DNA of 64,000 nt from a virus, in IMG/VR virus record IMGVR_UViG_3300038386_000109. One strand, written 5' to 3'. Numbering within the stretch: position 1 is the first letter of the stretch; every line of letters starts with the position of its first letter. A program made the translations under genes and the position numbers. The notes beneath the pieces are model-generated. The model was not told the origin of the DNA. It worked only from the letters and a program-made list of their open reading frames with translations, and ran no database searches. Below are positions 15,352 through 64,000 of this stretch, in pieces.

Positions 15352-16689
15352 TCAGGCGGCGCTGACGCGGATTTTTGCTGCGTTCGGATAGCGTTCGAGG
15401 AAGCTCTTCTTCTGGCCAGCATCGAACGTCTGCCGATGCTGCTCGCGCTCGGCGCGCTGCGCCTCGTCGGCGGCCTTCGGCTGCATTTCGAGGATCGTGC
15501 GGTAAGCGCTCGGATGAATTTTCTCTGCCTCCTTCACACCCTTGATCTTCAGGGCGGCGAGGTAGACGGAGTCGGCATTGACGAACTTCGTGTCCATGTC
15601 GCCGACATACGGACGGCAGACGCGGCGAGCTTCGTCGATCGCCATAGCACGCTCGACAGCGGAGGCCTCGGCCGCGGCTATTGCAGCGTCCATAGCTTCC
15701 TTGGTGACGGTGTCCTTGGCGCCTTCGGAGCGCGCGGCAGCGAGAGCGGCGAGGCGCTTTTTCTTCTCTTCCTCAGTCTCATCGTAGTCGTCGGGGTCCG
15801 GGTCGGCGTCCTTGGCCTTCGCATCGACCGGGAGAACGGCGCTGAGCGCGTCGAGCACGGGAACGATGTCGTCGAGCGATGCGCCGGCATTGAGCTTGCC
15901 GTCGCAGGCGATCTTCAAACCCTCGAAGATATCGGTCTTCTTCGAATCGAAATTGGTCGCGGTCACATCCTTCAGGATCGGGATGAGGTCGACCTTCGAG
16001 TCCTTCGCTACTTTTTGGAAAAGCGAGGCCATGAGCGCGCCCTGAACGAGTGCGGCCTTACGGGAGAGAGCGGTCGGCATTGTGAAACACTCCATGCTGA
16101 TTTTCGGGATACCGTCGGCCACATGAACGTCGGGTCCTGCCCGACCTTCCTCTACGATCGCGACATGGTTTCCGCCGATGTCACGCATGATGCCGTCGTA
16201 AGCGCGGCCCTCGTACGTGCCTGGCGTCATGTCGGCGACGTAGCGGTACCCGCAGGACAATTCCTTCTGCTTGTCGCTCGTGATCGCCTTGATTGCGCGA
16301 CCGGGCCACACATGCAGATTGGCCTTCAGGTAGGGGTGCTCGTAACGAACATCGCTGATCGACCCGATGGTCAGATCATAAGCGTGATCGTTTGCGTGAA
16401 CTGGCTTGTGGTGGAAGAGAAGAGGTTTGCCGTCGAACGTGCTAGCGGCCCGAGAAAGCTCGTCGGGGTGGCGCAGCATCATGTAGGTCTTGGTGGGCTC
16501 CAGCCCGAGCTTCTGCCAGTTCGGGACTTCGCGGCCGTAATATGGGTTGACGGTGGCCTTGGAAATATTGGTGTCGACCACATGCATATGACCGTCATCG
16601 TCAATGCGACGAGCGGATGCGCGGTCGAATATAAGTTCTTGGCTGACTGCCTCCCCCGACGACAGCCGCTGTCGAGCGACTGCTGTCAT
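15352..16689 (-). CDS. Prohead protease/scaffold (DUF2213 family)
   Basis: NISKATVNPYYGRE...ELSCGY...TPGTYEG..YDGIMRDI.GNHVAIVEEGRAG. Confidence 0.9.
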   Translation of the reverse strand: MTAVARQRLSSGEAVSQELIFDRASARRIDDDGHMHVVDTNISKATVNPYYGREVPNWQKLGLEPTKTYMMLRHPDELSRAASTFDGKPLLFHHKPVHANDHAYDLTIGSISDVRYEHPYLKANLHVWPGRAIKAITSDKQKELSCGYRYVADMTPGTYEGRAYDGIMRDIGGNHVAIVEEGRAGPDVHVADGIPKISMECFTMPTALSRKAALVQGALMASLFQKVAKDSKVDLIPILKDVTATNFDSKKTDIFEGLKIACDGKLNAGASLDDIVPVLDALSAVLPVDAKAKDADPDPDDYDETEEEKKKRLAALAAARSEGAKDTVTKEAMDAAIAAAEASAVERAMAIDEARRVCRPYVGDMDTKFVNADSVYLAALKIKGVKEAEKIHPSAYRTILEMQPKAADEAQRAEREQHRQTFDAGQKKSFLERYPNAAKIRVSAA

Positions 16690-16737
16690 AGCGAAAACAA
16701 TTACAGCGGTTCCGTTAGACTTTCAAGCCCCGAGATT

Positions 16738-17469
16738 TTAGTCGATGCCGGGAATAATAGGCTCCGCAAAACATCGGCACCGGTAAATACATCCTGGGTG
16801 CGCACGGGCTCCTGTCCTCGCATCGGCTACAGGTGGACTTGCCCAGGCAAATACCTGACCATCTAGTTCTCGATGGAGGGGCCTTACATGATTATCGTGG
16901 ACGGACCGCCACACATATTGCGTAGAGCCGACATGCTCAGCGCGGACCTGCGTGATCGTCGTCATCGCGCGGCTCGTCTCAGTCTGCGCAATAAGCTCAG
17001 CCCGGCTGCGGACCACCTTGCCCGTCCGCATTATTTCCTCGACGAGAGACGCTGGCCTCTCGCCCGACACGAAACCCTGAAGCGCCAATTTTTGCACACG
17101 CGACGCGGCGTCTTTCGGCATCGACGTTATCAGGTCCACCTGGGACCGGATTAAATCCTGGATCGCCGCACCAGTCGGCGCCGTATCAATTTCCTGATGC
17201 AGGTTCCGGGAAATTTCCTGAGAAATATTCCACCAGCTTTTTCTATTTCGAGCGGCCACCTCAGTGGTCATGCGGGTCGCAACCGACGCCGCCCATGGCC
17301 CAAGAATTTCGGCGTACCGGTACAGGGCATCCTGAATTTTCTGGTAGTCGAGGACAGGGTCGAAGCCTTGAATTAGGTCGGCTATGTGCCGGGCAACCTT
17401 GCGCAGCTTTGCTGCATATTGCCGCTCGGCAGTGCGAGCCCTTACCCATTCAGCCCTAGGCGACGGCAC
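16738..17469 (-). CDS. Head morphogenesis protein (Mu gpF / SPP1 gp7-like)
   Basis: RAELIAQTET...YVWRSVHDNHVRPLHRELDG...HPGCIYRCRCFAEP. Confidence 0.9.
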   Translation of the reverse strand: MPSPRAEWVRARTAERQYAAKLRKVARHIADLIQGFDPVLDYQKIQDALYRYAEILGPWAASVATRMTTEVAARNRKSWWNISQEISRNLHQEIDTAPTGAAIQDLIRSQVDLITSMPKDAASRVQKLALQGFVSGERPASLVEEIMRTGKVVRSRAELIAQTETSRAMTTITQVRAEHVGSTQYVWRSVHDNHVRPLHRELDGQVFAWASPPVADARTGARAHPGCIYRCRCFAEPIIPGID

Positions 17470-27026: not shown

Positions 27027-27232
27027 CGCCCGTGATGCCTTCCACCACCGCTCAGATGTTCCGTCTTCTCGCCCGGCTTGGCAACTATCTGATAGCCGGA
27101 GGCATCGAGGTCTTCCTGCAGCCGCTTGGATATTGCCGGCAGGTACGGCCGCACCTCACCTTCGAAAAAACTCGACTGCTCGCGGACCATTTGATCGATG
27201 GATGATTGAATAATGTCGTCGACAGTTCGCAT
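27023..27232 (-). CDS. Hypothetical protein
   Basis: 69 aa, starts just after the pentamer mini-array. Confidence 0.5.
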   Translation of the reverse strand: MRTVDDIIQSSIDQMVREQSSFFEGEVRPYLPAISKRLQEDLDASGYQIVAKPGEKTEHLSGGGRHHGR

Positions 27233-27237
27233 CGGAT

Positions 27238-27308
27238 TATCCTCGCCTCGCCTTGCCTGCGCCTTGCGCAGCCGAGCCCGACCCAGCCATGCAGTGGACA
27301 GCCATACC
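27238..27308 (-). repeat. Orphan GGY-NN pentamer mini-array (putative guide ncRNA)
   Basis: Minus strand reads GGTAT GGCTG TCCAC TGCAT GGCTG GGTCG GGCTC GGCTG CGCAA GGCGC(A) GGCAA GGCGA GGCGA GGATA: 14 units, one atypical, one 1-nt insertion. Confidence 0.65.
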
Positions 27309-27604
27309 TTGTCGTACGCAGATTACTGCGGCTTCAGCCATCGCGCCAGCATCATCGTGATATGCCGATCCTGCTGGGCGCGCCAAGGGGCTGGATGCTC
27401 GCGGTCTTGATGGAATTGCAGGGTCAGCATTGCGATCCACGAGGTCGAGGACTTTAGTCTTGCATCCCAGCTGGCCCTGCCGCGCATCGATTCGCTCTCC
27501 CTAGACGGAAAATCCTTCTACCGCGCCAACTGTATCGTGGAAAGTCCCTCTATAGCCGGACCTGCGACCCTCAAAATAAATACGAATATTCCCCTGGAAT
27601 AAAA

Positions 27605-30658: not shown

Positions 30659-31494
30659 CTACAGCCGCTTAACGATCCACATAACCACCGCGATCACGAC
30701 CACGATCGCGGTGAGCGCAAGGACATTTCCCGGCCAGCCCGGTGTAGCCATCTCAAAATGCCCTCGTCCATTTTCCCCCGATTGGTCGGCAGGTCCATCG
30801 GGATTTGTCGGGATCACCCGAAACCCCAAAAAAACCAGCCCAGAATTAAACCGACCGACGCAATAACGAGGGTGCCGCAAAGGAATATTGTAGCACCCTT
30901 ACTCATTCTTCGAAGCGGTAGGTCCACGTTCCCCCCGAATCTTTCACGATTTGGTCGCGCCTGACATACCCCTGTCCCACAGCAACGGCCGCATAAATCC
31001 CCCAGCCCTTCACAGTGACACGCCAGAGACCAAGACTAGTCTTCTCGCCCTTGTAGAGATGCACCAGCTCGCCGGTGCGGATGTAGCGGTGCAGCGCAAG
31101 GTCGACGAGGCCTCGGATCATTCTGACTTCCGCCGCTTCATCGCGTACTCGTAGGAGCTGACAGCGATGGCCGCGTACCTCTTTGTCAGCTGCTTCGCGG
31201 TCTCTATCGCGACATGGTGAGGCACCTGCGAATCGGAAGCGCGAGCTAGAATCTTGCCCCTACGATCAACCTCGCAGACATAGAAGAGGCGCGGTTCGCG
31301 GCTCACTTCGACTTCTTTTCCTGCTGCCGGCCGGTGACCGGCTTCTGGATGGCATTCTTAGGCATGCTGCCCAACACCTCGCTGACGATGGCGTCGCGCT
31401 GCATCTTCTGGCTTTCGTTCAGCTCGCGGTGGATCGGATCACCATCAAAATGCTCAGGTCCCAGCTCGCCGAGTTTGTGTTTATAGGGTTTCAT
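30659..31494 (-). CDS. Four small hypothetical ORFs (30659-30880, 30903-31121, 31118-31306, 31303-31494)
   Basis: Mostly overlapping start/stop codons; downstream of the portal gene and the second mini-array. Confidence 0.45.
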
Positions 31495-31546
31495 CCGTGC
31501 CTTGCCTCGCCGTGCCCAGCCGCGCCACGCACCGCAGAGCCGTGCC
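31492..31546 (-). repeat. Orphan GGY-NN pentamer mini-array (putative guide ncRNA)
   Basis: Minus strand GGCAC GGCTC TGCGG TGCGT GGCGC GGCTG GGCAC GGCGA GGCAA GGCAC GGATG: 11 perfectly phased units. Confidence 0.75.
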
Positions 31547-31551
31547 GCTGG

Positions 31552-47016: not shown

Positions 47017-47712
47017 TCATTCCTCCCCTACAAATTTCTCGCGCTCGCGCTTGGCGTCAAGAATAGTTCCCTTGGCGTGATCCGCATCGGCTGGTGCCAA
47101 CTCCGGCATATCATCGGTGACCTTCCAGTCCTTCGGCTTGTCGGGCCGGCCGAAGGTGATGACAAACTCTGGTGTGAGCTGGGACTGCGTTACCTGATCT
47201 GGGTCCTCGGCGTGGGCCCGTCGGCTGATCCAGCTATTCGCCCCGCCTTCGATGTGCCCCATGGACTTTTCGAGCAGGTGAGCCTCCGCGAGAACATTAC
47301 GAACATCGACCATCCCCGAGCCGGCTTTAATCGAAAGACCTACAAGCTTCTCGCCGTAAGTACGGGCGCGGATGTAGCAAGCCTCCTCATACCTTTTCCT
47401 AAATTCATCGTTCTCATGCAGCCAGCGATAGAAAGCTGTGACGCCCACATCTTGGTCTGCGAGCATATCTGTGAGGCTTGCGCCATTGCAGATGGCATCG
47501 AACATCCGGTCGGCCAACTCTGGAGTGAGCTTAGTTGGCCGACCGGGTCCGAGCTTACGTCTCTCGTACTCAAGCCTGCTGTCGTAGAGGGCTACCGGCT
47601 TGGGGCTGTCCTTTGGCATCGGCGCCTGGTTGCGAGCGGTTCTGCGCGAGCTGGCCGGCTTGCTGCTGGACCTGTTCGGCTTGCTTGACGCTTTCGTCTT
47701 GGACATCGCCAT
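47017..47712 (-). CDS. Terminase small subunit
   Basis: GRPTKLTPELADRMFDAICNGASL...AFYRWL...EFRKRYEEA HTH pattern. Confidence 0.75.
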   Translation of the reverse strand: MAMSKTKASSKPNRSSSKPASSRRTARNQAPMPKDSPKPVALYDSRLEYERRKLGPGRPTKLTPELADRMFDAICNGASLTDMLADQDVGVTAFYRWLHENDEFRKRYEEACYIRARTYGEKLVGLSIKAGSGMVDVRNVLAEAHLLEKSMGHIEGGANSWISRRAHAEDPDQVTQSQLTPEFVITFGRPDKPKDWKVTDDMPELAPADADHAKGTILDAKREREKFVGEE

Positions 47713-48893
47713 CTTCGTCGAACCTGGTTTTATTCAGAGCCCTTGCGAGCTGCTGAATATCTTTATTGCCGGGAGCCACTGCCTGGAACGCGATCCCGAT
47801 GGCGCGAAGGAAGTGACCGTAGCCCGGGCCGCCATCCTTGTTGGACTGCCGCACGACACCCTTCAGGTGATCGATGTGCTTCTGTACCTCTTCCTGTTTC
47901 ATCATGGTGTGCCTGCCTCAGTGATCGAGAACTAACGCGCATGAATGTAGCACTCCTCAGTCGGCGCGACCACCCTGGCCTTGAATGTGGCTCAGCGCAT
48001 CCATCGATGCTTCCGCGACGGCCATGGAGACCTTGTGCACCAATTCTTGCTGCTTCAGCGACAGGGCGCGAATCATTGTCCGTAGCTGTCCGACATCACG
48101 AAGGACCACCATCTGCATGCTGACCACTGGCTGCAGTGTTGGGTCCTCCTCGAGCACCTGCTTGCAGACGGCAATCACCTGGGTCGCGGCCGCGTCGGCG
48201 ATCTTGCCTATCTCTGCGTTGTCCGTCATGACACCACCGTCCCGTTTGCGATCCGGTCCTCCGTCATGCGGGCCTCAAACCGCTCAAAACTCTCGGGCTG
48301 AAGGTGCAGATTTTCGACCATGCCGTGATAAATCGAGAGCGCCTCGGCGGCGAGCATGCCATTCGGATGGCGCATGCCGACAACCTCAAATGCATGCATC
48401 AGGTGGGCGTAAAAATGCTGCGGCAGGTGGCCGAGCATCGAGGGTCTCCACCTAGCTGGTGGCAGGCTTTTGAAAAAGGCGCCAGGCACATCGATCTCCC
48501 GCGCATCAGCCGGCACCATGAAGCAGAAGCGCAGGAATGCGACGAGGCCTCGCGCCACCGCATCCGGTGTATCAGGGAACGTGGGCTGGAAGCCCTTCTG
48601 GACGACATCGCAGCCGCGGACCCCGGTCAGCAGTGTACCCTGCTCGCGCAACGGCAATTCCATCACCCAGTCCTGTAGAACGCTCTGCATTTTTATTCCC
48701 CCGGTTGATCCAACATCGACGGCTGGTGCTGCCGGCGATAATCATCGGCGATCGCCTGCATGATCGCGGTCTCGTAGTCGGCCTTCTCCTGCGTCATGCG
48801 CTTCGTGTACACGAGGCGGCGGTAGACCTTCTTGCGCTGAGATACCTCGCGCTCGGCAGCCTGCATTTTCTGCTCGGCAGTGAATTCACCCAT
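47570..48893 (-). CDS. Hypothetical ORFs (47570-47905, 47957-48229, 48226-48690, 48693-48893)
   Basis: Operon-like packing; 48226-48690 has a SVLQDWV..L..QGTLL..VRGCD phage motif. Confidence 0.5.
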
Positions 48894-51871: not shown

Positions 51872-51926
51872 TAGGTAGGAGAGAATTGACGAAACGTCAA
51901 GACCCAAAAAAGTGACGAAACGTCAA
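51872..51926. promoter_or_regulatory. Divergent control region with two TGACG-AAA-CGTCA operators
   Basis: Perfect palindromes at 51887-51899 and 51913-51925; minus-strand TTGACG-17-TACCTA toward the HTH operon. Confidence 0.7.
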
Positions 51927-52022
51927 AAATATTCGCTCCGGCGGATTGTTTTTCAGGAAATTAAGTCCGATATTCAGGTGGCAGGACGGGCCAGGAACCC
52001 GCCCTCCAGACCTTGGGAAAAA

Positions 52023-52391
52023 ATGGCCTCCAGCAAATTCCTCATGGCCGAGCGTCGCGACTACGGCCAACCTGAACCAGCCCGCGACCCAAATCCAGTC
52101 CACCACGCCCTAGCGCTGATCGAGCGCATGGACCTCTCAGACCTCGAGACAGTCGCCTCCGCCCTGCTCGACCGCATGATCGACCTACACGACCAAGCCG
52201 AAGAGGAAAAAACAAAACCCAGCTACGACAACCTGCTGCTGATGCTCGACGATGTCTCGGCAGTCGCGCAGAATCTATACCTCGTCGCACCACCCGCAGC
52301 AAAAGAGAAAGCCCGCGAGGACAAAATCCGCGGCGCCCGCACAGTGTGCGATCAGCTTCTGCGAACAAAACAGCCGAAACGGCGTCGCTAA
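52023..52391 (+). CDS. Hypothetical early protein
   Basis: Start MASSKF after GACCTTGGGA leader. Confidence 0.55.
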   Translation: MASSKFLMAERRDYGQPEPARDPNPVHHALALIERMDLSDLETVASALLDRMIDLHDQAEEEKTKPSYDNLLLMLDDVSAVAQNLYLVAPPAAKEKAREDKIRGARTVCDQLLRTKQPKRRR

Positions 52392-52458
52392 GGCGCTGTC
52401 ACCTGGGGCTGGCCGTCCCGGGTCTGAAGATGGCAGGCCAAACTTGAAAGGTAGCAAA

Positions 52459-53694
52459 ATGTTAAACGCGCAAGCACAGCAGGCCTCGATGCCCGTACGC
52501 CCGTACGCAGTCGACACCTCCGCTGGATCGCTCGACAGCACGGTATCGAACCAGTGGTTCAGCCGTCCTGCCGACGAAAAATACGCCGACCTTAACGCGC
52601 TCTTCAACGCGAAAAAGGCGGCGTACGATGCCGCCTGGGAGACGCGCGTCAGCACACGGGGGTTTTGCTTTGAAGCTCCGATCCCGGAGACCAAGGAAGA
52701 CTTCAAGAAGCTGACGGTGGGCGTGCCCAACGTACGGACGGCCGGCGCCGATGTTAGCCGGACGGTCGAAGTTGCCCCGACGCACTGGGCGTTCGGTCAG
52801 CTCTGTCAGCTGGCGAAGGCACCTGCCTCGTATCTGCGGGAATTACCCTCGCAGATGGTCACCGAGCAGCTGACCTACCGCATGCGGTTCGCCCGTGAAG
52901 TCGAGGAGGTGAAACTCTACGGCGGAACGCAGCAGCTCTTCGCGGCCACGGGCCCGACATACGGGCGCATCCCCGACCACGAAGTCGTTCACGCGCTGCG
53001 GCAGATCGCCGGCAGCGGCCTCGGCGACAACCCGCGCTTCCACTGGAAGACACCGGGTCGACTGAATTGGTCGAACGGCACCTACGACCCAGAGGACATG
53101 GGCGACAAGAACGACCGGACGTTCTACGGCAGCGACCGCGACTTGTTCGTGTTCCTGGTCGACGACCGCCGGCCGATCGTCGTGGGCAAGACCCGCGACG
53201 GGCGTGACGACCTGCTCTTCCGCGGGTTCTACCTCCAGAACTCAGAAGTCGGCTCGCGCGCACTGAAGGTGCGATCGTTCTACCTCCGCGGCGTTTGCAT
53301 GAACCGCAATCTGTGGGGATGCGAAGGCTTCGAAGAGCTGACCATCCGGCACACCGCACTAGCGCCGGAGCGCTGGCTCGATGAGTGCGTCCCCGCGCTC
53401 GAAAGCTACTCGGCCGCAAGCGACCGCAAGCTTCTCGAATCGGTCGAGAAGGCGAAGGCCGCGAAGCTAGTCGAAAGCGACGACGACGAGCTAGCTTTTC
53501 TGAAGCGCTGCGAATTCTCGAAGGCAGCCAGCAAAAAAATCGTCGAGGTTCATGAGCGCGAGGAAGGCGCGCACATGAGGACTGCCTGGGACTTTGCCCA
53601 AGGCATTACCGCCTACGCGCGGAACGCCCTGAACACCGACGATCGCCTCCAAGTCGAAGCGGTGGCCGGCAAAATCCTCAATAAGGTCGCGTAA
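52459..53694 (+). CDS. DUF932-family protein
   Basis: VSNQWFSRPADE...THWAFGQL...YGRIPD..VV...SDRDLFVFLVD...NSEVG..L...RGVCMNRNLWG. Confidence 0.8.
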   Translation: MLNAQAQQASMPVRPYAVDTSAGSLDSTVSNQWFSRPADEKYADLNALFNAKKAAYDAAWETRVSTRGFCFEAPIPETKEDFKKLTVGVPNVRTAGADVSRTVEVAPTHWAFGQLCQLAKAPASYLRELPSQMVTEQLTYRMRFAREVEEVKLYGGTQQLFAATGPTYGRIPDHEVVHALRQIAGSGLGDNPRFHWKTPGRLNWSNGTYDPEDMGDKNDRTFYGSDRDLFVFLVDDRRPIVVGKTRDGRDDLLFRGFYLQNSEVGSRALKVRSFYLRGVCMNRNLWGCEGFEELTIRHTALAPERWLDECVPALESYSAASDRKLLESVEKAKAAKLVESDDDELAFLKRCEFSKAASKKIVEVHEREEGAHMRTAWDFAQGITAYARNALNTDDRLQVEAVAGKILNKVA

Positions 53695-59347: not shown

Positions 59348-60106
59348 TCACTGCATGCCGACGAAAGCTTCTCTCTCGGTCTTCTCGGCATCGTCGCCGA
59401 GCGGATGCTCGCCGTCCGTCACATCGTTGTGACCAGCATCGCCCGTGGCCGTTCCATTGGCCTCACCACGCGGCTGCGCGTCGGGGGCTTCCTGCACCTC
59501 GTCGGCCAGCTTGAAGCGGCTGGCGAGCTTCTCCTGGCCGGCACGGTACCCTTTCCGCCAGGCATTCGCCTGCGGCAGGTTCGGTGCGTAGGGAGGTGAT
59601 TCGTCCTTGCCCTCGAGCCCCGCCAATTCGCCATCCTTGTAGGCCTTGTCGTCGGAGTGCTCGCGAACCGGTTCATCGAGCAGCGAGAGCTGGGTGCCGA
59701 GCGGCAGGTTCATCCACCGGCAGACAGTTTGGAGCTTGATAGCCCGCTCGCGTGCGTGGGCCTCGAGGACGTCTGGCTCTTTCAGACTGAGCTTGATCAG
59801 CCCAAGATCGACGCCCATGCCCTTGGCGGATTTGCACACATTTTTGTAGTTGGTGTCGGCGTCGGTTTTCCGCTTCAGAGCCGCCTGCACTTTCGTGCGT
59901 TCTTGGAAAAATATCGTCCGCAGCTGCTCGTCGGTCAGCTCGGGCCGAATCGGTACTACGTTGTCGGGCCGTTTTTCTGCGGCGGCCGACCGCTTGTTGT
60001 GATTCGTGCTCACGGTCCCTGATGCCGTGGGGGCCGTTCGCCCCTTCGCTGGCTTCTTATTTTTTGCGCCCTTTGGCCTTCCTCGTCCGCGTTTTTCAGC
60101 AGTCAT
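59348..60106 (-). CDS. GapR-like DNA-binding protein
   Basis: Basic N-tail; K..AD..YKNVCKSAKGMGVDL..IK pattern resembling GapR/DUF2312. Confidence 0.5.
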   Translation of the reverse strand: MTAEKRGRGRPKGAKNKKPAKGRTAPTASGTVSTNHNKRSAAAEKRPDNVVPIRPELTDEQLRTIFFQERTKVQAALKRKTDADTNYKNVCKSAKGMGVDLGLIKLSLKEPDVLEAHARERAIKLQTVCRWMNLPLGTQLSLLDEPVREHSDDKAYKDGELAGLEGKDESPPYAPNLPQANAWRKGYRAGQEKLASRFKLADEVQEAPDAQPRGEANGTATGDAGHNDVTDGEHPLGDDAEKTEREAFVGMQ

Positions 60107-60234: not shown

Positions 60235-61090
60235 ATGGGCAAATTCATACCGCTCTCGGCCAGCGATCTGGCCGGGATCGAAGAGCAGCTGTTCGGCATC
60301 GCCGATCAGTTGAAGGTCCTGAACGATCGTATGATGGGATCGTTCGTGACGAGAGGCGGAGTAGAGGACCATCCTGGCCTTCTCGATGCGGCGAAGGAAG
60401 TCGCGAACGAGGCCAGCACCTTCTACCAGCAGACTGTCGGCCGGTATCTCCACGGCATCCAGTTGCGAGAAATCGAGCGCAAGTTCGCTCAAGCCGCGCG
60501 CGCGACCAAGGAGCAGGGGTCATGAAGGTCCACAAAGACCTTACAAACGAGCTGCTGTTTATACGACGACACGGAGAGAAGTTTGGCCTCAGCCGGTCCC
60601 GCGGCTACGAGCCAGAAGATGTTGTTGTTTTGGGAATAAGCGATCCGTTTATACTGTACTATATTCCAAAAGAAAAAAGGTACCGCGCCGGCTGTAGGGA
60701 TTTCTCCGCCAAAGGGGCGCTGAGATATTGGCAAGGTCTAGTGAAAGATCAGAGCTGGAAAGACTGTTATTATACGGACGGCGCAGCGAATCGGCTCAGG
60801 CGCGCCAAAAAATGGGTGCGGCTGATCGAGAAAAACGAGGCTGAACTAAAGGCTGAGAAGGCGAAGCGGCAGACTGCTAAACGCAAACACCGCCGGTCCC
60901 GCAAATGAGATCGGTCCCGCTCGCGATCCTCACCCTCTGCTATTGGGGAGTGTTTACAGCCATGGATATCTCGATCATGACATGCGGCCATCGCTTTACG
61001 GACGTAGAACGGAAGGGTCGAAATTTTCTGGCCTTCATCGGTGGCGTTCTCTGGACCGGCACCTTCTGTCTCGCAATCCTTGGAGTCTGA
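60235..61090 (+). CDS. Three hypothetical ORFs (60235-60525, 60522-60908, 60905-61090)
   Basis: Coupled ATGA overlaps. Confidence 0.5.
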
Positions 61091-61092
61091 AA

Positions 61093-61944
61093 ATGGGAAT
61101 GGGAATGACCATAGAAACAATCGAAAAAACCCTCGAAGAGCATCCCGGAACGGCCTTGTCAGGGGAAATGCAAACCGACGCCCCAAAGTCGTCTCAGGAG
61201 CTGAACACCTTCGCCAAGACACTGCCACCGGCACCATCGCCAGACACATTGATGCGCGCCTTGGTAATGGCGGCGTCAGACCCGGCGTTCGACGTCGAAA
61301 AGCTGAGGACCTTGCGCGAGCTGCACAAGGAGGCCATCGAAGATCAGCGCCGTGCGGCGTGGAACGAGGCGATGGCGCGATGCCAGGAGGAAATGGCCAA
61401 GATACCGATCAAGGCCAACAAAAAGAACAGCCAGACAAATTCGGTCTACGCCGACATATCAGCCATAAACAGGGTTATTAAGCCGATCTACACGAAGCAC
61501 GGCTTCTCGGTGAATTTCGACACCATCGCTCCGCGCGTGGACAATCACCTGACCATGCGTGGTGTCGTGTCCCACAATGCTGGCTTCGAACGCGCCTACA
61601 CCAGCGACTACCCCCTCGATGTCGCTGGCATAAGGGACGGCCGCAACAAAACCGACATCCATGCGCAGGGATCAACCAAGACCTACGCCCGCCGGTATAT
61701 GCTGATCGAGATATTTAATCTCGACGTCGAGGGCATGGACAAGGACGGCAATTCTCCCAACGACATGGTCACCGAAGAGCAGGTCGCGGAGCTGAAAAAG
61801 ATCGTCAAGGACAACAAGATGAACGAAGCCGAAGTCCTGAACTACCTGAAGGTCGAAAACCTCTCCGACATCTACGCCGGAAAGTTTCAAGCCGCGAAGA
61901 CAGCGATCCTTCAGCGCGCGAAGGCGGCGCAGCAAAAGAAATGA
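61093..61944 (+). CDS. ERF-family single-strand annealing protein
   Basis: NSQTNSVYADI....KPIYTKHGF...GSTKTYARRYML...FNL. Confidence 0.85.
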   Translation: MGMGMTIETIEKTLEEHPGTALSGEMQTDAPKSSQELNTFAKTLPPAPSPDTLMRALVMAASDPAFDVEKLRTLRELHKEAIEDQRRAAWNEAMARCQEEMAKIPIKANKKNSQTNSVYADISAINRVIKPIYTKHGFSVNFDTIAPRVDNHLTMRGVVSHNAGFERAYTSDYPLDVAGIRDGRNKTDIHAQGSTKTYARRYMLIEIFNLDVEGMDKDGNSPNDMVTEEQVAELKKIVKDNKMNEAEVLNYLKVENLSDIYAGKFQAAKTAILQRAKAAQQKK

Positions 61945-62432
61945 CCCTCGAGATTTTCGACTGCGAGCAGCTCTTCGAGATAGACGCGGTCGCTGGCCGC
62001 ATCTTCTGGAAGAACCCGCCTAAAAACCATCCCCGACTTAAGGGAGTGGAGGCCGGATGCCCTCGTCTGGGTCGGAACGGAAAAATCTACTGGATAATAA
62101 AAATCAATGGGAGGCCACATTACCGCGGGCATTTGATTTTTACTTACATGAACGGAAGACCTCCGCACCCACTTCTTGATCACAGAGATGGCGACTCACT
62201 CAACGACAAAATCGATAATCTCAGAGACGCCACGCACGAACAGAATGTGTGGAACAGAAAACGTAGGCGATCCGCCGCACTGCCAATGGGCGTGCGAAGA
62301 TTCAGAGATAAGTTCCAGGCGCGGATCGTTTTCCGCAAAAAATATATCCATCTCGGCACCTTCAATACCGCTGAGATGGCCGAAGCAGCCTACCTATCTC
62401 GAAGGAGGGATTTGTATGGCGACTTCGCTTGA
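61941..62432 (+). CDS. HNH homing endonuclease with AP2-like domain
   Basis: LDHRDGDSLNDKIDNLRDAT..QN..N; GV....KFQARI....IHLGTF.TAE.A..AY. Confidence 0.9.
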   Translation: MTLEIFDCEQLFEIDAVAGRIFWKNPPKNHPRLKGVEAGCPRLGRNGKIYWIIKINGRPHYRGHLIFTYMNGRPPHPLLDHRDGDSLNDKIDNLRDATHEQNVWNRKRRRSAALPMGVRRFRDKFQARIVFRKKYIHLGTFNTAEMAEAAYLSRRRDLYGDFA

Positions 62433-63036
62433 AATTTTCGACTGTGAACAAGGGAGTTTAGAATGGGTACATCTGCGCCTCGGTATCCCGACGGCGAGCG
62501 AATTCTCGACCGTCATGGCGGTCGGAAAGCAGGGCGGCGAATCGGTGACGCGGCGAGCGCTCATGAACCGGCTTGCCGCGGAAGTCCTCACCGGATCACC
62601 TTCTGATGGAGCTTTTGAGAGTCGACACACCCTGCGCGGAAAAGAACAAGAGACAGAGGCAGCCGAAATGTATTCGTTCATCAACAACGTCGAACTTCAG
62701 CACGTAGGCTTTGTCAAAAACGGCATTGCTGGCTGCAGTCCTGATCGACTAATTGGCGAAGATGGAGGCTTGGAAATTAAGTCAGGTTTATCTCACATCG
62801 TCATCGATGCGATCCGACGCGATAAATTTCCGCCGGAGCACATGGCTCAGTGTATGGGCTCGATATGGGTCACAGAGCGGTCATGGTGGGACTTGGTATT
62901 ATACGCACCCGGCCTGCCACTGTTTCAGAAGCGCGTCTATCGGGACGAAGAATACATCAAGAAACTAAAGGAGGCGGTGGAGCAATTTTACGGGCATATG
63001 ATGCAAGTGGTCGAATTCGTACGAAGGTACGGATAA
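62416..63036 (+). CDS. YqaJ/lambda-type exonuclease
   Basis: EQGSLEW...RLGIPTASEF...GCSPDRL...GLEIK...MAQ; start moved to MATSLE (62416). Confidence 0.9.
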   Translation: MATSLEIFDCEQGSLEWVHLRLGIPTASEFSTVMAVGKQGGESVTRRALMNRLAAEVLTGSPSDGAFESRHTLRGKEQETEAAEMYSFINNVELQHVGFVKNGIAGCSPDRLIGEDGGLEIKSGLSHIVIDAIRRDKFPPEHMAQCMGSIWVTERSWWDLVLYAPGLPLFQKRVYRDEEYIKKLKEAVEQFYGHMMQVVEFVRRYG

Positions 63037-63041
63037 CATCT

Positions 63042-63297
63042 GGCATGGCTAAGATAGGCATAGCAAGGCCATGCTTGGCGCTGCGGGGCGAAGCTTGGCG
63101 TGGTTAAGCAAGGAGCGGCGCGGTTCGGCTCGGCTCAGCCCGGCGGGGCCATGCAGGGCGGGGCAAGGTCCGGGTAAGGCGGTGCGAGGCGGTGCGAGGC
63201 GAGGAGCGGTGAGGTGATGCGGAGCAAAAGCAAGGCAGGCACGGCAGGGCCAGGCCGGGCAAGGCGATGCGGGGCAAGGTATAGCGTGGCGAGGTGG
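63042..63297 (+). repeat. Long GGY-NN pentamer array (~51 units), putative guide-RNA locus
   Basis: Phased (G/A/T)G(C/T/A)-NN units from GGCAT GGCTA to GGCGA GGTGG with two 1-nt insertions (63172, 63228) and one 4-nt unit (63234-63237); no credible ORF. Confidence 0.85.
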
Positions 63298-63361
63298 TGA
63301 TACTTTATTTTTTGGTTAGCTCATTTCCGAGCAGACAAGGCAGACCTTGGGAGAATGAAAA

Positions 63362-63967
63362 ATGAAGATCGAAGTTAAAATAGAGGGCGTAACGCCCCTG
63401 ATATTCAACCGATTCACCGACAAAGCAGCAGAGGATTCTACCTCAGGCAATCGAGGTGCTCAAGGTGGCGACAGAGGTACTCCGCTAGAAATCGCGCACA
63501 GCAAGCTATACTTCGATGCGTACAACAAAAAGATCGTGGTACCTCAACCAAATTTGCTGCGGTGCTTAGTCGAAGGCGGACGATTTCATAAAATCGGCAA
63601 GACCCAGATCACGACGGAGCGTAAATCAATTCTGTACTCCTGCCTCGACATTGAGGGTGCGGACATCGAACTGATTCATAAACAACCATGGAAGGTCGAT
63701 ACGCGCGCTGTACGCATTCCCGCAACAGGCGGACGCATCCTTGCCCACCGCCCCATGTTCGACGACTGGACGCTCGAATTTATCGTCGACCTTGATACAT
63801 CGATTATTGGGGTCAAGCTTCTAAGAATGATCGTCGACGACGCTGGCAAACGGATCGGGTTAGGAGACTTCCGACCTGCTACAAAGGGGCCGTTTGGTAA
63901 GTTCTGTGTGACGCTTTGGCAGGAGATTCAAGAGCTTCCGTCAACGATGCAAATCGCTGCCGAGTAA
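63362..63967 (+). CDS. Standalone Cas7/RAMP-like protein (Vipr-like)
   Basis: IEVKIEGVTPL (RAMP beta1), IVVPQPNLLRCL (position of the P.IPGSSLKG motif), C-terminal Gly loop IGLGDFRPATKGPFGKFCV; no other cas genes; flanked by pentamer arrays. Confidence 0.75.
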   Translation: MKIEVKIEGVTPLIFNRFTDKAAEDSTSGNRGAQGGDRGTPLEIAHSKLYFDAYNKKIVVPQPNLLRCLVEGGRFHKIGKTQITTERKSILYSCLDIEGADIELIHKQPWKVDTRAVRIPATGGRILAHRPMFDDWTLEFIVDLDTSIIGVKLLRMIVDDAGKRIGLGDFRPATKGPFGKFCVTLWQEIQELPSTMQIAAE

Positions 63968-63973
63968 AACTAT

Positions 63974-64000
63974 GGCGCAGCGTGGCAGTGTCCTGCACTG
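63974..64000 (+). repeat. Start of a second pentamer array downstream of the RAMP-like gene (truncated)
   Basis: GGCGC AGCGT GGCAG TGTCC TGCAC TG in the same 5-nt phase. Confidence 0.6.

Follow-up and report, generated by a model that had tools for sequence, protein, structure and literature searches.

The tract at positions 63042-63297 of the window, which is the whole 64,000-nucleotide stretch of viral DNA analysed here, is with high confidence a vrRNA array of a VIPR system. Taken as a whole, it is probably best explained as an array of several guides in which one-base slips of register lie at the junctions of guide modules and are tolerated between guides. VIPR is a CRISPR-related DNA-silencing system that was first described in 2026 preprints (bioRxiv 10.64898/2026.04.26.720920 and 10.64898/2026.04.26.720927). 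The locus was identified as a VIPR system because the adjoining protein matches the Vipr protein of SUSP1 and because the preprints' description of GGY-NN units and of the skip fits it.

Structure of the main array

A base-by-base reading of the tract gives 49 phased pentamers of the form D-G-H-N-N, distributed in blocks of 26, 11 and 12 units which are separated by slips of +1, +1 and -1. The unit list, NN strings, blocks and slips given in an earlier note on this DNA were reproduced exactly. Over the 49 units, position 1 is G in 35, A in 7 and T in 7 with C absent, position 2 is G in 49/49 (23/23 within blocks B and C) and position 3 is C in 38, T in 8 and A in 3 with G absent, so that C or T is found in 46/49. 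The two NN positions have entropies of 1.82 bits (position 4) and 1.88 bits (position 5). An independent dynamic-programming parse with slips allowed returned blocks of 27, 11, 2 and 12 units with slips of +1, +1 and -1 at a score of 158 bits. Windows of eight units along the array reach 30-36 bits, whereas no shuffle of the window rose above 10.6 bits.

Block A (63042-63171, plus strand, as are all features of the main array) consists of 26 in-register GGY-NN units with NN of high complexity. Its units 13-15 were observed to be handle-like (GGTTA AGCAA GGAGC), and the block ends with GGCGG GGCAA GGTCC. The parse places the first +1 slip at 63172, where an extra G makes CC-GGG-TA. Block B (63173-63227) follows with 11 units in which only AA, GG, GA and GC occur as NN, and it ends with TGCGG AGCAA. 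This block also contains a perfect 10-nt (two-unit) tandem duplication in 2.5 copies at 63177-63201. The out-of-register insert at 63228-63237 is formed by an extra A (63228), an AGCAA unit (63229-63233) and a 4-nt GGCA (63234-63237), and amounts to two units out of register, +1 and then -1, so that blocks B and C share one register 65 nt apart. Together with the last unit of block B, the insert reads AGCAA AGCAA GGCA and resembles an array-terminal handle such as the AGCAA AGCAA GGATT at the end of a related array (L014).

Block C (63238-63297) has 12 units in the register of block B, of which the first four are variable and are followed by handle-like units (GGCAA GGCGA TGCGG GGCAA GGTAT ... 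GGCGA GGTGG). The canonical terminal handle is degraded in the main array to GGCGA GGTGG TGATA. An AU-rich 3' tail of 19 nt, TGATACTTTATTTTTTGGT, is found at 63298-63316, and the TGATACTTTATTTTTT after block C resembles the GGATATTTTATTGATT tails which lie between guides in three related loci (L005, L035 and L038). No tails were found to separate the three blocks. Low sequence complexity is a feature of both B and C, which may be in decay.

Repeat-spacer periodicity was not found in the array region, and the fold of the array RNA was no better than that of shuffles (z -1.08, whole region). A simple scan of the array strand gave no promoter- or terminator-like site, and no terminator-like hairpin was found after the tail. 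No Rfam family covers the array, and no ribozyme was found in or beside the arrays.

The adjoining Vipr protein

The vipr gene lies downstream of the array (63362-63967, plus strand) and encodes a stand-alone RAMP of 201 residues, which was identified by phmmer against PDB entry 36pp, 'SUSP1 Vipr protein' (E 4.2e-9; Pfam family unknown), and which matches PHROG 4652. In the published cryo-EM structure, a thumb arginine and the D-aromatic-R motif of the G-loop grip two guanines and the pyrimidine of each repeat (10.64898/2026.04.26.720927). Both the thumb arginine and the G-loop motif are kept in the 201-residue protein: residues R138, D177 and R179 of the SUSP1 protein align with R130, D169 and R171 here, and W178 is replaced by F170. 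The GGY-contacting columns were found to be invariant or nearly so in 34 homologues. In addition, the top Foldseek matches of an AlphaFold2 model of Vipr (pLDDT 78) are the Csm3/Cas7 RAMPs (E 1e-5). More than 1,700 homologues of the protein are present in public data.

The genes that were scanned next to the array encode Erf, HNH, YqaJ and Vipr, and the 201-residue protein is the only RAMP among them. No Cas1, Cas2 or Cas6 family was found among these genes. Similarly, no vap gene was recognised among the neighbours Erf, HNH, YqaJ and SSB; HNH-domain Vaps are listed in the discovery preprint (10.64898/2026.04.26.720920). Among the 75 loci of relatives with more than 1.5 kb of upstream sequence, YqaJ was observed to precede vipr in 12, and the HNH gene recurs in only one. 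A binding track for a TRAP-like or other ring protein, a G-quadruplex tract, iterons and a pac site had also been considered for the tract and were dropped after the match to SUSP1 Vipr was found.

Genomic setting and other arrays

The source is an uncultivated phage, whose 78-kb contig, obtained from a rock metagenome, includes the window. The sequence was found in only two runs, both of which are DNA metagenomes, and in no RNA run. Upstream of the array, on the same strand, are the erf gene (60943-61944), an HNH gene (61941-62432) and the gene of a YqaJ-type recombination exonuclease (62416-63036; Pfam YqaJ E 1.5e-16, PHROG exonuclease E 1e-35), whose stop codon is located 5 nt 5' of the array. 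The main array thus fills the gap between the exonuclease gene and vipr. The window contains a phage module for recombination and replication, which comprises Erf, HNH, the YqaJ exonuclease and a primosomal protein, and long minus-strand ORFs of 1046, 975 and 1991 residues. The VIPR system is phage-encoded here. The tight packing of these genes and the lack of promoter- or terminator-like sites on the array strand suggest that the array is co-transcribed with the flanking genes.

A second array, which has 40 units and +1 slips at two sites, begins at 63969 on the plus strand and runs through the end of the window at 64000 to L001:10809. It ends with GGCAA GGCAA GGATT; the ATG of an ssb gene follows after 6 nt, and a gene caller had annotated the array as a 66-residue ORF. 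Two orphan arrays were found on the minus strand, in the late region. The first (31492-31551) has 11-12 units, the size of a single guide, ends with GGCGA GGCAA GGCAC GGATG and sits between the stop of the 1991-residue ORF and an ATG at 31494. The second (27238-27313) has 11 + 4 units with one +1 slip, ends with GGCAA GGCGA GGCGA GGATA and lies 8 nt before an ATG at 27232. Beyond the main array, these two orphans and the array that starts at 63969, no further arrays were found in the window.

Some other features of the contig were noticed. A type II hammerhead ribozyme (Rfam RF02276, 44.7 bits, E 7e-6) is found at 52372-52442 on the plus strand, 10.6 kb from the array, where it overlaps the stop of an ORF (51912-52391); the ATG at 52460 lies 18 nt beyond the end of the ribozyme. 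A ribozyme-interspersed vrRNA array at this site was considered and rejected because no pentamer array lies beside the hammerhead. Past the end of the window (L001:10815-11154), the ssb frame breaks off after 42 codons, and the contig finishes with ~200 nt of palindromic, GC-rich sequence (CCCTCCCTCCCCGGAGGGGAGGG...); a REP-like element, the end of a prophage or a join made in assembly could account for this. Furthermore, a phage protein of 252 residues encoded on the minus strand (59348-60106) gave a match to the ribosome-modulation-factor (RMF) domain at residues 153-192 (Pfam PF04957, E 7e-7).

Sequence conservation in related arrays

A total of 126 related loci were collected, and 136 non-redundant arrays with 5,751 units were parsed beside 82 related vipr loci. 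Relatives sit on IMG/VR viral contigs that are rated up to 100% complete. G was observed at position 2 in 92% of the 5,751 units and C at position 3 in 82%. The entropies of the GGY positions are 1.29, 0.51 and 0.89 bits compared with 1.90 and 1.97 bits for the NN positions. The earlier note had read the tract as a guide array in which the first three positions are constrained and NN is free, and had proposed positional entropy across homologous loci as a check; GGY was found to be fixed and NN hypervariable among relatives, in agreement with that reading. NN strings are not common to different loci, and a search for 18-mers of the main array shared with other loci gave one low-complexity match only.

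The ends of the arrays are also conserved. Relatives' arrays begin within a few bases of the upstream stop codon, and at their 3' ends GGCAA GGCAA GG(A/T)TT lies shortly upstream of the ribosome-binding site of the gene that follows. True tails between guides persist in some relatives, namely L009 and the three loci with GGATATTTTATTGATT. As an example, a 360-unit array upstream of vipr in a Deltaproteobacteria MAG (L009:342-2156; JAFDED010000144.1) holds at least 16 guides of 12-27 units, each of which ends with TGCAA YGCGY GGCAA GGCAA GGTTT and a conserved tail of ~30 nt (TTTTSGAGGGGAYGRA...AATATAC).

Two related genomes (G005 from the L025 record and G007 from the L039 record) were observed to carry 7-10 dispersed arrays of 14-66 units, intergenic and genome-wide; a second vipr gene is present in G005. 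Scattered orphan arrays characterise the clade and are not peculiar to the window's contig. Recent replication slippage was noticed in the duplication of block B and in a related array (L007:2023-2382), there in the form of GGCAC x7, (GGTTA GGCGA) x3 and an 11-unit duplication, and arrays may grow by duplication of units.

Targets and the limits of guides

Six guide-target matches among related phages score at least 20 under a 1-nt skip, while the maximum with a 0-nt or 2-nt skip is 16. Pairing in the six matches spans 10-16 units, which fits the guide size of 55-70 nt proposed in the earlier note. In four of the six, pairing stops 2-6 units before the array end, which indicates that the handle does not pair with the target.

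Three of these matches lie in long arrays without slips. In a 54-unit in-register block (L035), units 34-47 match the serine-recombinase gene of another phage in 26 of 28 bases. Units 13-24 of a 28-unit slip-free array (L199:140-279) match positions 47947-47981 of a rival phage (G001) in 23 of 24 bases; the target, a start-codon match, is formed by the first codons of the gene upstream of the rival's vipr locus and vrRNA array. Likewise, units 19-28 of a 34-unit slip-free array (L206:2388-2557) match G005 1335-1363 in 20 of 20 bases, in the gene next to that rival's vipr. The recombinase and gene-start matches are in frame, with the skipped base at the wobble position of the codon, as is usual for VIPR targets. 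The L199 and L206 matches are in line with the published proposal of mutual silencing of VIPR operons among VIPR phages.

In these slip-free arrays of 28, 34 and 54 units, the match is limited to 10-14 units ahead of the 3' handle. The in-register units upstream of the paired stretch must then belong to other guides, and it follows that guides are normally concatenated in phase in the clade. This result is at odds with a single slip-bounded guide of 26 units, as block A would be if slips were the points of cutting. By analogy with the 28-unit L199 array, whose pairing is confined to units 13-24, block A probably holds two guides joined in phase. The claim that the main array contains several guides was very probably right, and three or four modules are proposed here.

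The gapped target search suggested in the earlier note succeeded for relatives' guides, to which the six 1-nt-skip matches belong, but yielded nothing significant for the searched guides of the contig itself. Within the own contig (64.5 kb), the best skip-1 self-matches were no better than the skip-0 and skip-2 controls. Exact 8-unit seeds from block A (units 1-8, 6-13, 15-22 and 19-26), block C (units 1-8) and orphan 2 (units 1-8) gave 62, 9, 41, 13, 11 and 7 matches in IMG/VR, as chance predicts, and no significant target. The longest extensions of these seeds reached 10 units (L053 and L054), 11 units (L064) and, for orphan 2, 9 units (two unrelated gene families); the 11-unit extension starts at a stop codon and runs into intergenic DNA. 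These extensions of 9-11 units were rejected as targets because they are within chance for the size of the collection. No match to the contig's guides was found in 14 related phage genomes, nor of relatives' guides in the contig.

A different pattern was noticed in one distant VIPR phage (G014, from the L046 record, IMGVR_UViG_3300036828_000667; Vipr 35% identical), where each of three small, dispersed arrays (near 64190-64274, 16678-16767 and 47319-47388) matches a site of its own genome ~100-300 nt away under a 1-nt skip, with scores of 24.5, 21 and 20. These near-self matches could reflect self-regulation of the neighbouring gene or be a trace of guide origin. No self-targeting was reported for the types tested in the discovery preprint (10.64898/2026.04.26.720920).

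Register slips and guide junctions

No slip is present in 87 of the 129 complete arrays (67%), of which 25 have at least 40 units and the longest has 142. Because slip-free arrays are this frequent and this long, slips are not a general delimiter of guides. We counted as pure those slips with good units on both sides (n=35). A +1 shift was observed in 24 of the 35, a bias of 24 versus 5, and an extra G before GG, the commonest slip type, accounts for 10 of the 24. An AA unit occurs within two units before the slip in 13 of 25 pure slips compared with 19% elsewhere (Fisher p 3e-4; own contig excluded), and the array-end score is higher at slips than elsewhere (leave-one-locus-out; Mann-Whitney p 0.01). 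Half of the relatives' slips do not follow a handle-like unit.

All three slips of the main array are preceded by handle-like units: GGCAA GGTCC before the extra G, AGCAA before the extra A, and the following AGCAA GGCA before the last slip. Their handle scores are 1.8, 0.8 and 3.6, where the background has a median of -2.1 and a 90th percentile of 1.3. The score of 1.8 at 63172 is above the 90th percentile of non-slip sites and that of 3.6 at the 63228-63237 insert is above the 95th. Where a block is delimited by slips or tails, its size has a median of 19 units, similar to that of stand-alone arrays, whose mode is 14-20 units.

Neither the 5-nt register of the filament nor the 3-nt register of the target can be carried across a slip, and a slip inside a guide would therefore be harmful but one between guides harmless. 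Both the rarity of slips and their preference for handle positions would be explained in this way, as would the placement of the three slips seen here. We lean towards the view that the slips of this array coincide with functional guide junctions. The proposal of the earlier note that slips delimit guides thus holds in part: all three follow handle-like units, and slips are enriched at such positions in relatives, but 87 of 129 complete arrays have none. On this view, slips mark junctions and are not the signal that normally defines them in the clade.

Other boundary signals were also considered. Handle-like sites in the interior of arrays were counted 169 times against 149 +/- 8 in shuffles (z 2.5), with a modest excess of spacings of 12-19 units. 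This signal was too weak for long in-register arrays to be split at interior handle-like sites, and the handle-based split of block A is weak for its part. TGCGG as a boundary motif was dropped as it is only 1.4-fold enriched.

Cutting at slips, decay and other explanations

The slips might be processing signals themselves, with the precursor cut at register shifts (e.g. CAAGGCAGGC) into guides of 55-70 nt and one of 130 nt. The position of the slips at handle-like units agrees with this, and the +1 bias (24 versus 5) with its recurrent extra G suggests selection and not random indels. The arrays also have no promoter or terminator of their own in the simple scan, and the 'staggered arrays' of the discovery preprint are, as far as the figure legend describes them, processed vrRNAs with abutting ends (10.64898/2026.04.26.720920). 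However, the 87 slip-free arrays must hold several guides as well, and block A would become a single 26-unit guide, in conflict with the 10-16 units of pairing in relatives. No nuclease or ribozyme is tied to the slips (Rfam found none in the array), and small-RNA sequencing in the preprint confirmed only the ribozyme-interspersed and single-vrRNA architectures (10.64898/2026.04.26.720920). We consider slips as the cutting signal unlikely, and that the RNA is cut exactly at the slips of this array is equally doubtful.

A selected role for the slips in tail-less arrays of the clade can be suggested only tentatively. Here the +1 slip, typically NN-GGG-YNN, would be punctuation that ends one Vipr filament and starts the next on a single operon transcript.

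Decay of the 3' part of the array is decidedly unlikely as the source of the slips. On this explanation the slips are homopolymer indels, function is limited to block A, with one guide or two, and what remains of B and C has been built from duplicated and handle-like units. Each slip can indeed be written as the gain or loss in a run (GG to GGG, AA to AAA, one N lost), block B, with no more than four types of NN, contains the perfect duplication of 10 nt, handle-like units make up most of block C and the terminal handle has been degraded to GGCGA GGTGG TGATA; microsatellite-like expansions such as GGCAC x7 in L007 are found in relatives too. Random decay would, however, be expected neither to enrich slips after handle units nor to produce the strong +1 bias, and GGY is intact through blocks B and C, with G at position 2 in 23/23 units.

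Finally, a tract that is no guide at all (a decayed microsatellite, a coding artefact or a cis-acting TRAP-like mRNA track controlling downstream translation) is highly improbable: although arrays occupy intergenic gaps completely, as far as the ribosome-binding site of the following gene, where Vipr binding could affect translation, and although the downstream array was called as a 66-residue ORF, the position-specific constraint is kept in 136 arrays, every one of which is next to a Vipr homologue, coding cannot be reconciled with a period of 5 nt, the NN strings of relatives match foreign phage genes under the published code, and a cis effect could coexist with guiding but cannot replace it.

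Comparison with known systems

In the published Vipr filament, one protomer is bound per 5 nt and each GGY is held by two neighbouring protomers, while the NN pairs presented by Vipr read double-stranded DNA with every third base skipped, in a strict 3-nt period (10.64898/2026.04.26.720927). Candidate vrRNAs were called in the discovery preprint at 4 or more units, with 9-16 per vrRNA, and small-RNA sequencing there supports the ribozyme-interspersed and single-vrRNA types only (10.64898/2026.04.26.720920). Its fig. S19 gives hammerhead ribozymes between vrRNA segments, and the legend of its fig. S18 speaks of 'staggered' arrays, in which vrRNAs come from positions that overlap by 1 nt.

To the extent that this legend describes them, the staggered arrays are like the present locus in that long GGY-NN arrays flank a Vipr RAMP which stands alone, and no structured tails separate the guides. 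A 1-nt overlap of the kind named in the legend would give NN-GGG-YNN, as observed at 63172 and in 10 of the 24 +1 slips of relatives. The +1 G slips at 63172 and in the downstream array (one) fit this form of stagger, but the A slip and the -1 slip do not. Most multi-guide arrays of the clade are joined in register, in contrast to the stagger of the legend. Judged from the legend, the main array may correspond to the architecture of fig. S18.

The Type II VIPR system of Escherichia phage SUSP1 and of a Pseudomonas fulva prophage shares with the present one a homologous protein (E 4e-9), the GGY-binding residues and the grammar of pentamers. The 1-nt-skip code, validated here on relatives, is common to both, both systems are phage-borne, and a recombinase and rival VIPR loci are targeted. 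The vrRNAs of SUSP1 are transcribed separately, at ~100 nt each, and carry 9-16 repeats followed by a conserved pseudoknot tail of 40 nt, whereas guides are concatenated here. The conserved 3' element of the present clade consists of units similar to the repeats (GGCAA GGCAA GGWTT), and any AU-rich tail is short; a pseudoknot tail of ~40 nt of the SUSP1 type is absent at this locus, where the terminal flank is the 19-nt AU-rich stretch. The locus also differs in lying inside an Erf/exonuclease/SSB recombination module.

The two orphan arrays of the window (27238-27313 and 31492-31551) resemble the solo or orphan vrRNAs (bioRxiv 10.64898/2026.10.15.759431) in being arrays of single-guide size far from vipr. 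The published solo vrRNAs belong to elements without vipr which borrow the protein in trans (10.64898/2026.10.15.759431), whereas Vipr is encoded in the same genome here. With the crRNA-Cas7 backbone of Class 1 CRISPR, VIPR shares a RAMP filament on the guide RNA and a periodic thumb insertion, and Csm3/Cas7 proteins are the top structural matches. The period is 6 with one base flipped in Class 1 CRISPR and 5 nt with three bases sequestered in VIPR. In addition, the present locus has no repeat-spacer array, no cas1 or cas2 and no Cas6, and its guide information is non-contiguous.

Proposed mechanism and implications

We infer the transcript ends, the processing and the Vipr loading of the main array as follows. 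The array would be transcribed within an erf-hnh-exo-[array]-vipr-[array]-ssb operon. Vipr protomers would then load one per GGY-NN pentamer, as known from the SUSP1 system, with GGY held between neighbours and NN exposed, and the NN pairs would read double-stranded target DNA with one base skipped per pair, a rule that is supported here for relatives. Each guide is predicted to consist of ~10-16 variable units and a non-pairing 3' handle of GGCAA or GGCGA units followed by GG(A/T)TT. On this scheme the main array would hold three or four modules: two in block A, one formed by block B with the AGCAA-GGCA insert, and one formed by block C with the AU-rich tail. The one-base slips at the module junctions may physically uncouple neighbouring filaments.

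If the tentative reading of the +1 slip as punctuation were true, it would be the register that sets the ends of guides, in place of a structured tail, ribozyme or Cas6-like cut. Such a mechanism, so far only predicted, would be the third by which guides are parcelled out of a precursor.

The main array is real, but it belongs to a kind of system that has already been published. Its importance lies in the delimitation of guides outside the SUSP1 type, for which this locus and the 136 related arrays give a concrete grammar that covers a large clade. This grammar comprises ~10-16 pairing units, a repeat-like non-pairing 3' handle, mostly in-register joining of guides and rare +1-biased slips that prefer junctions, and it makes guide calling and target prediction possible for such arrays.
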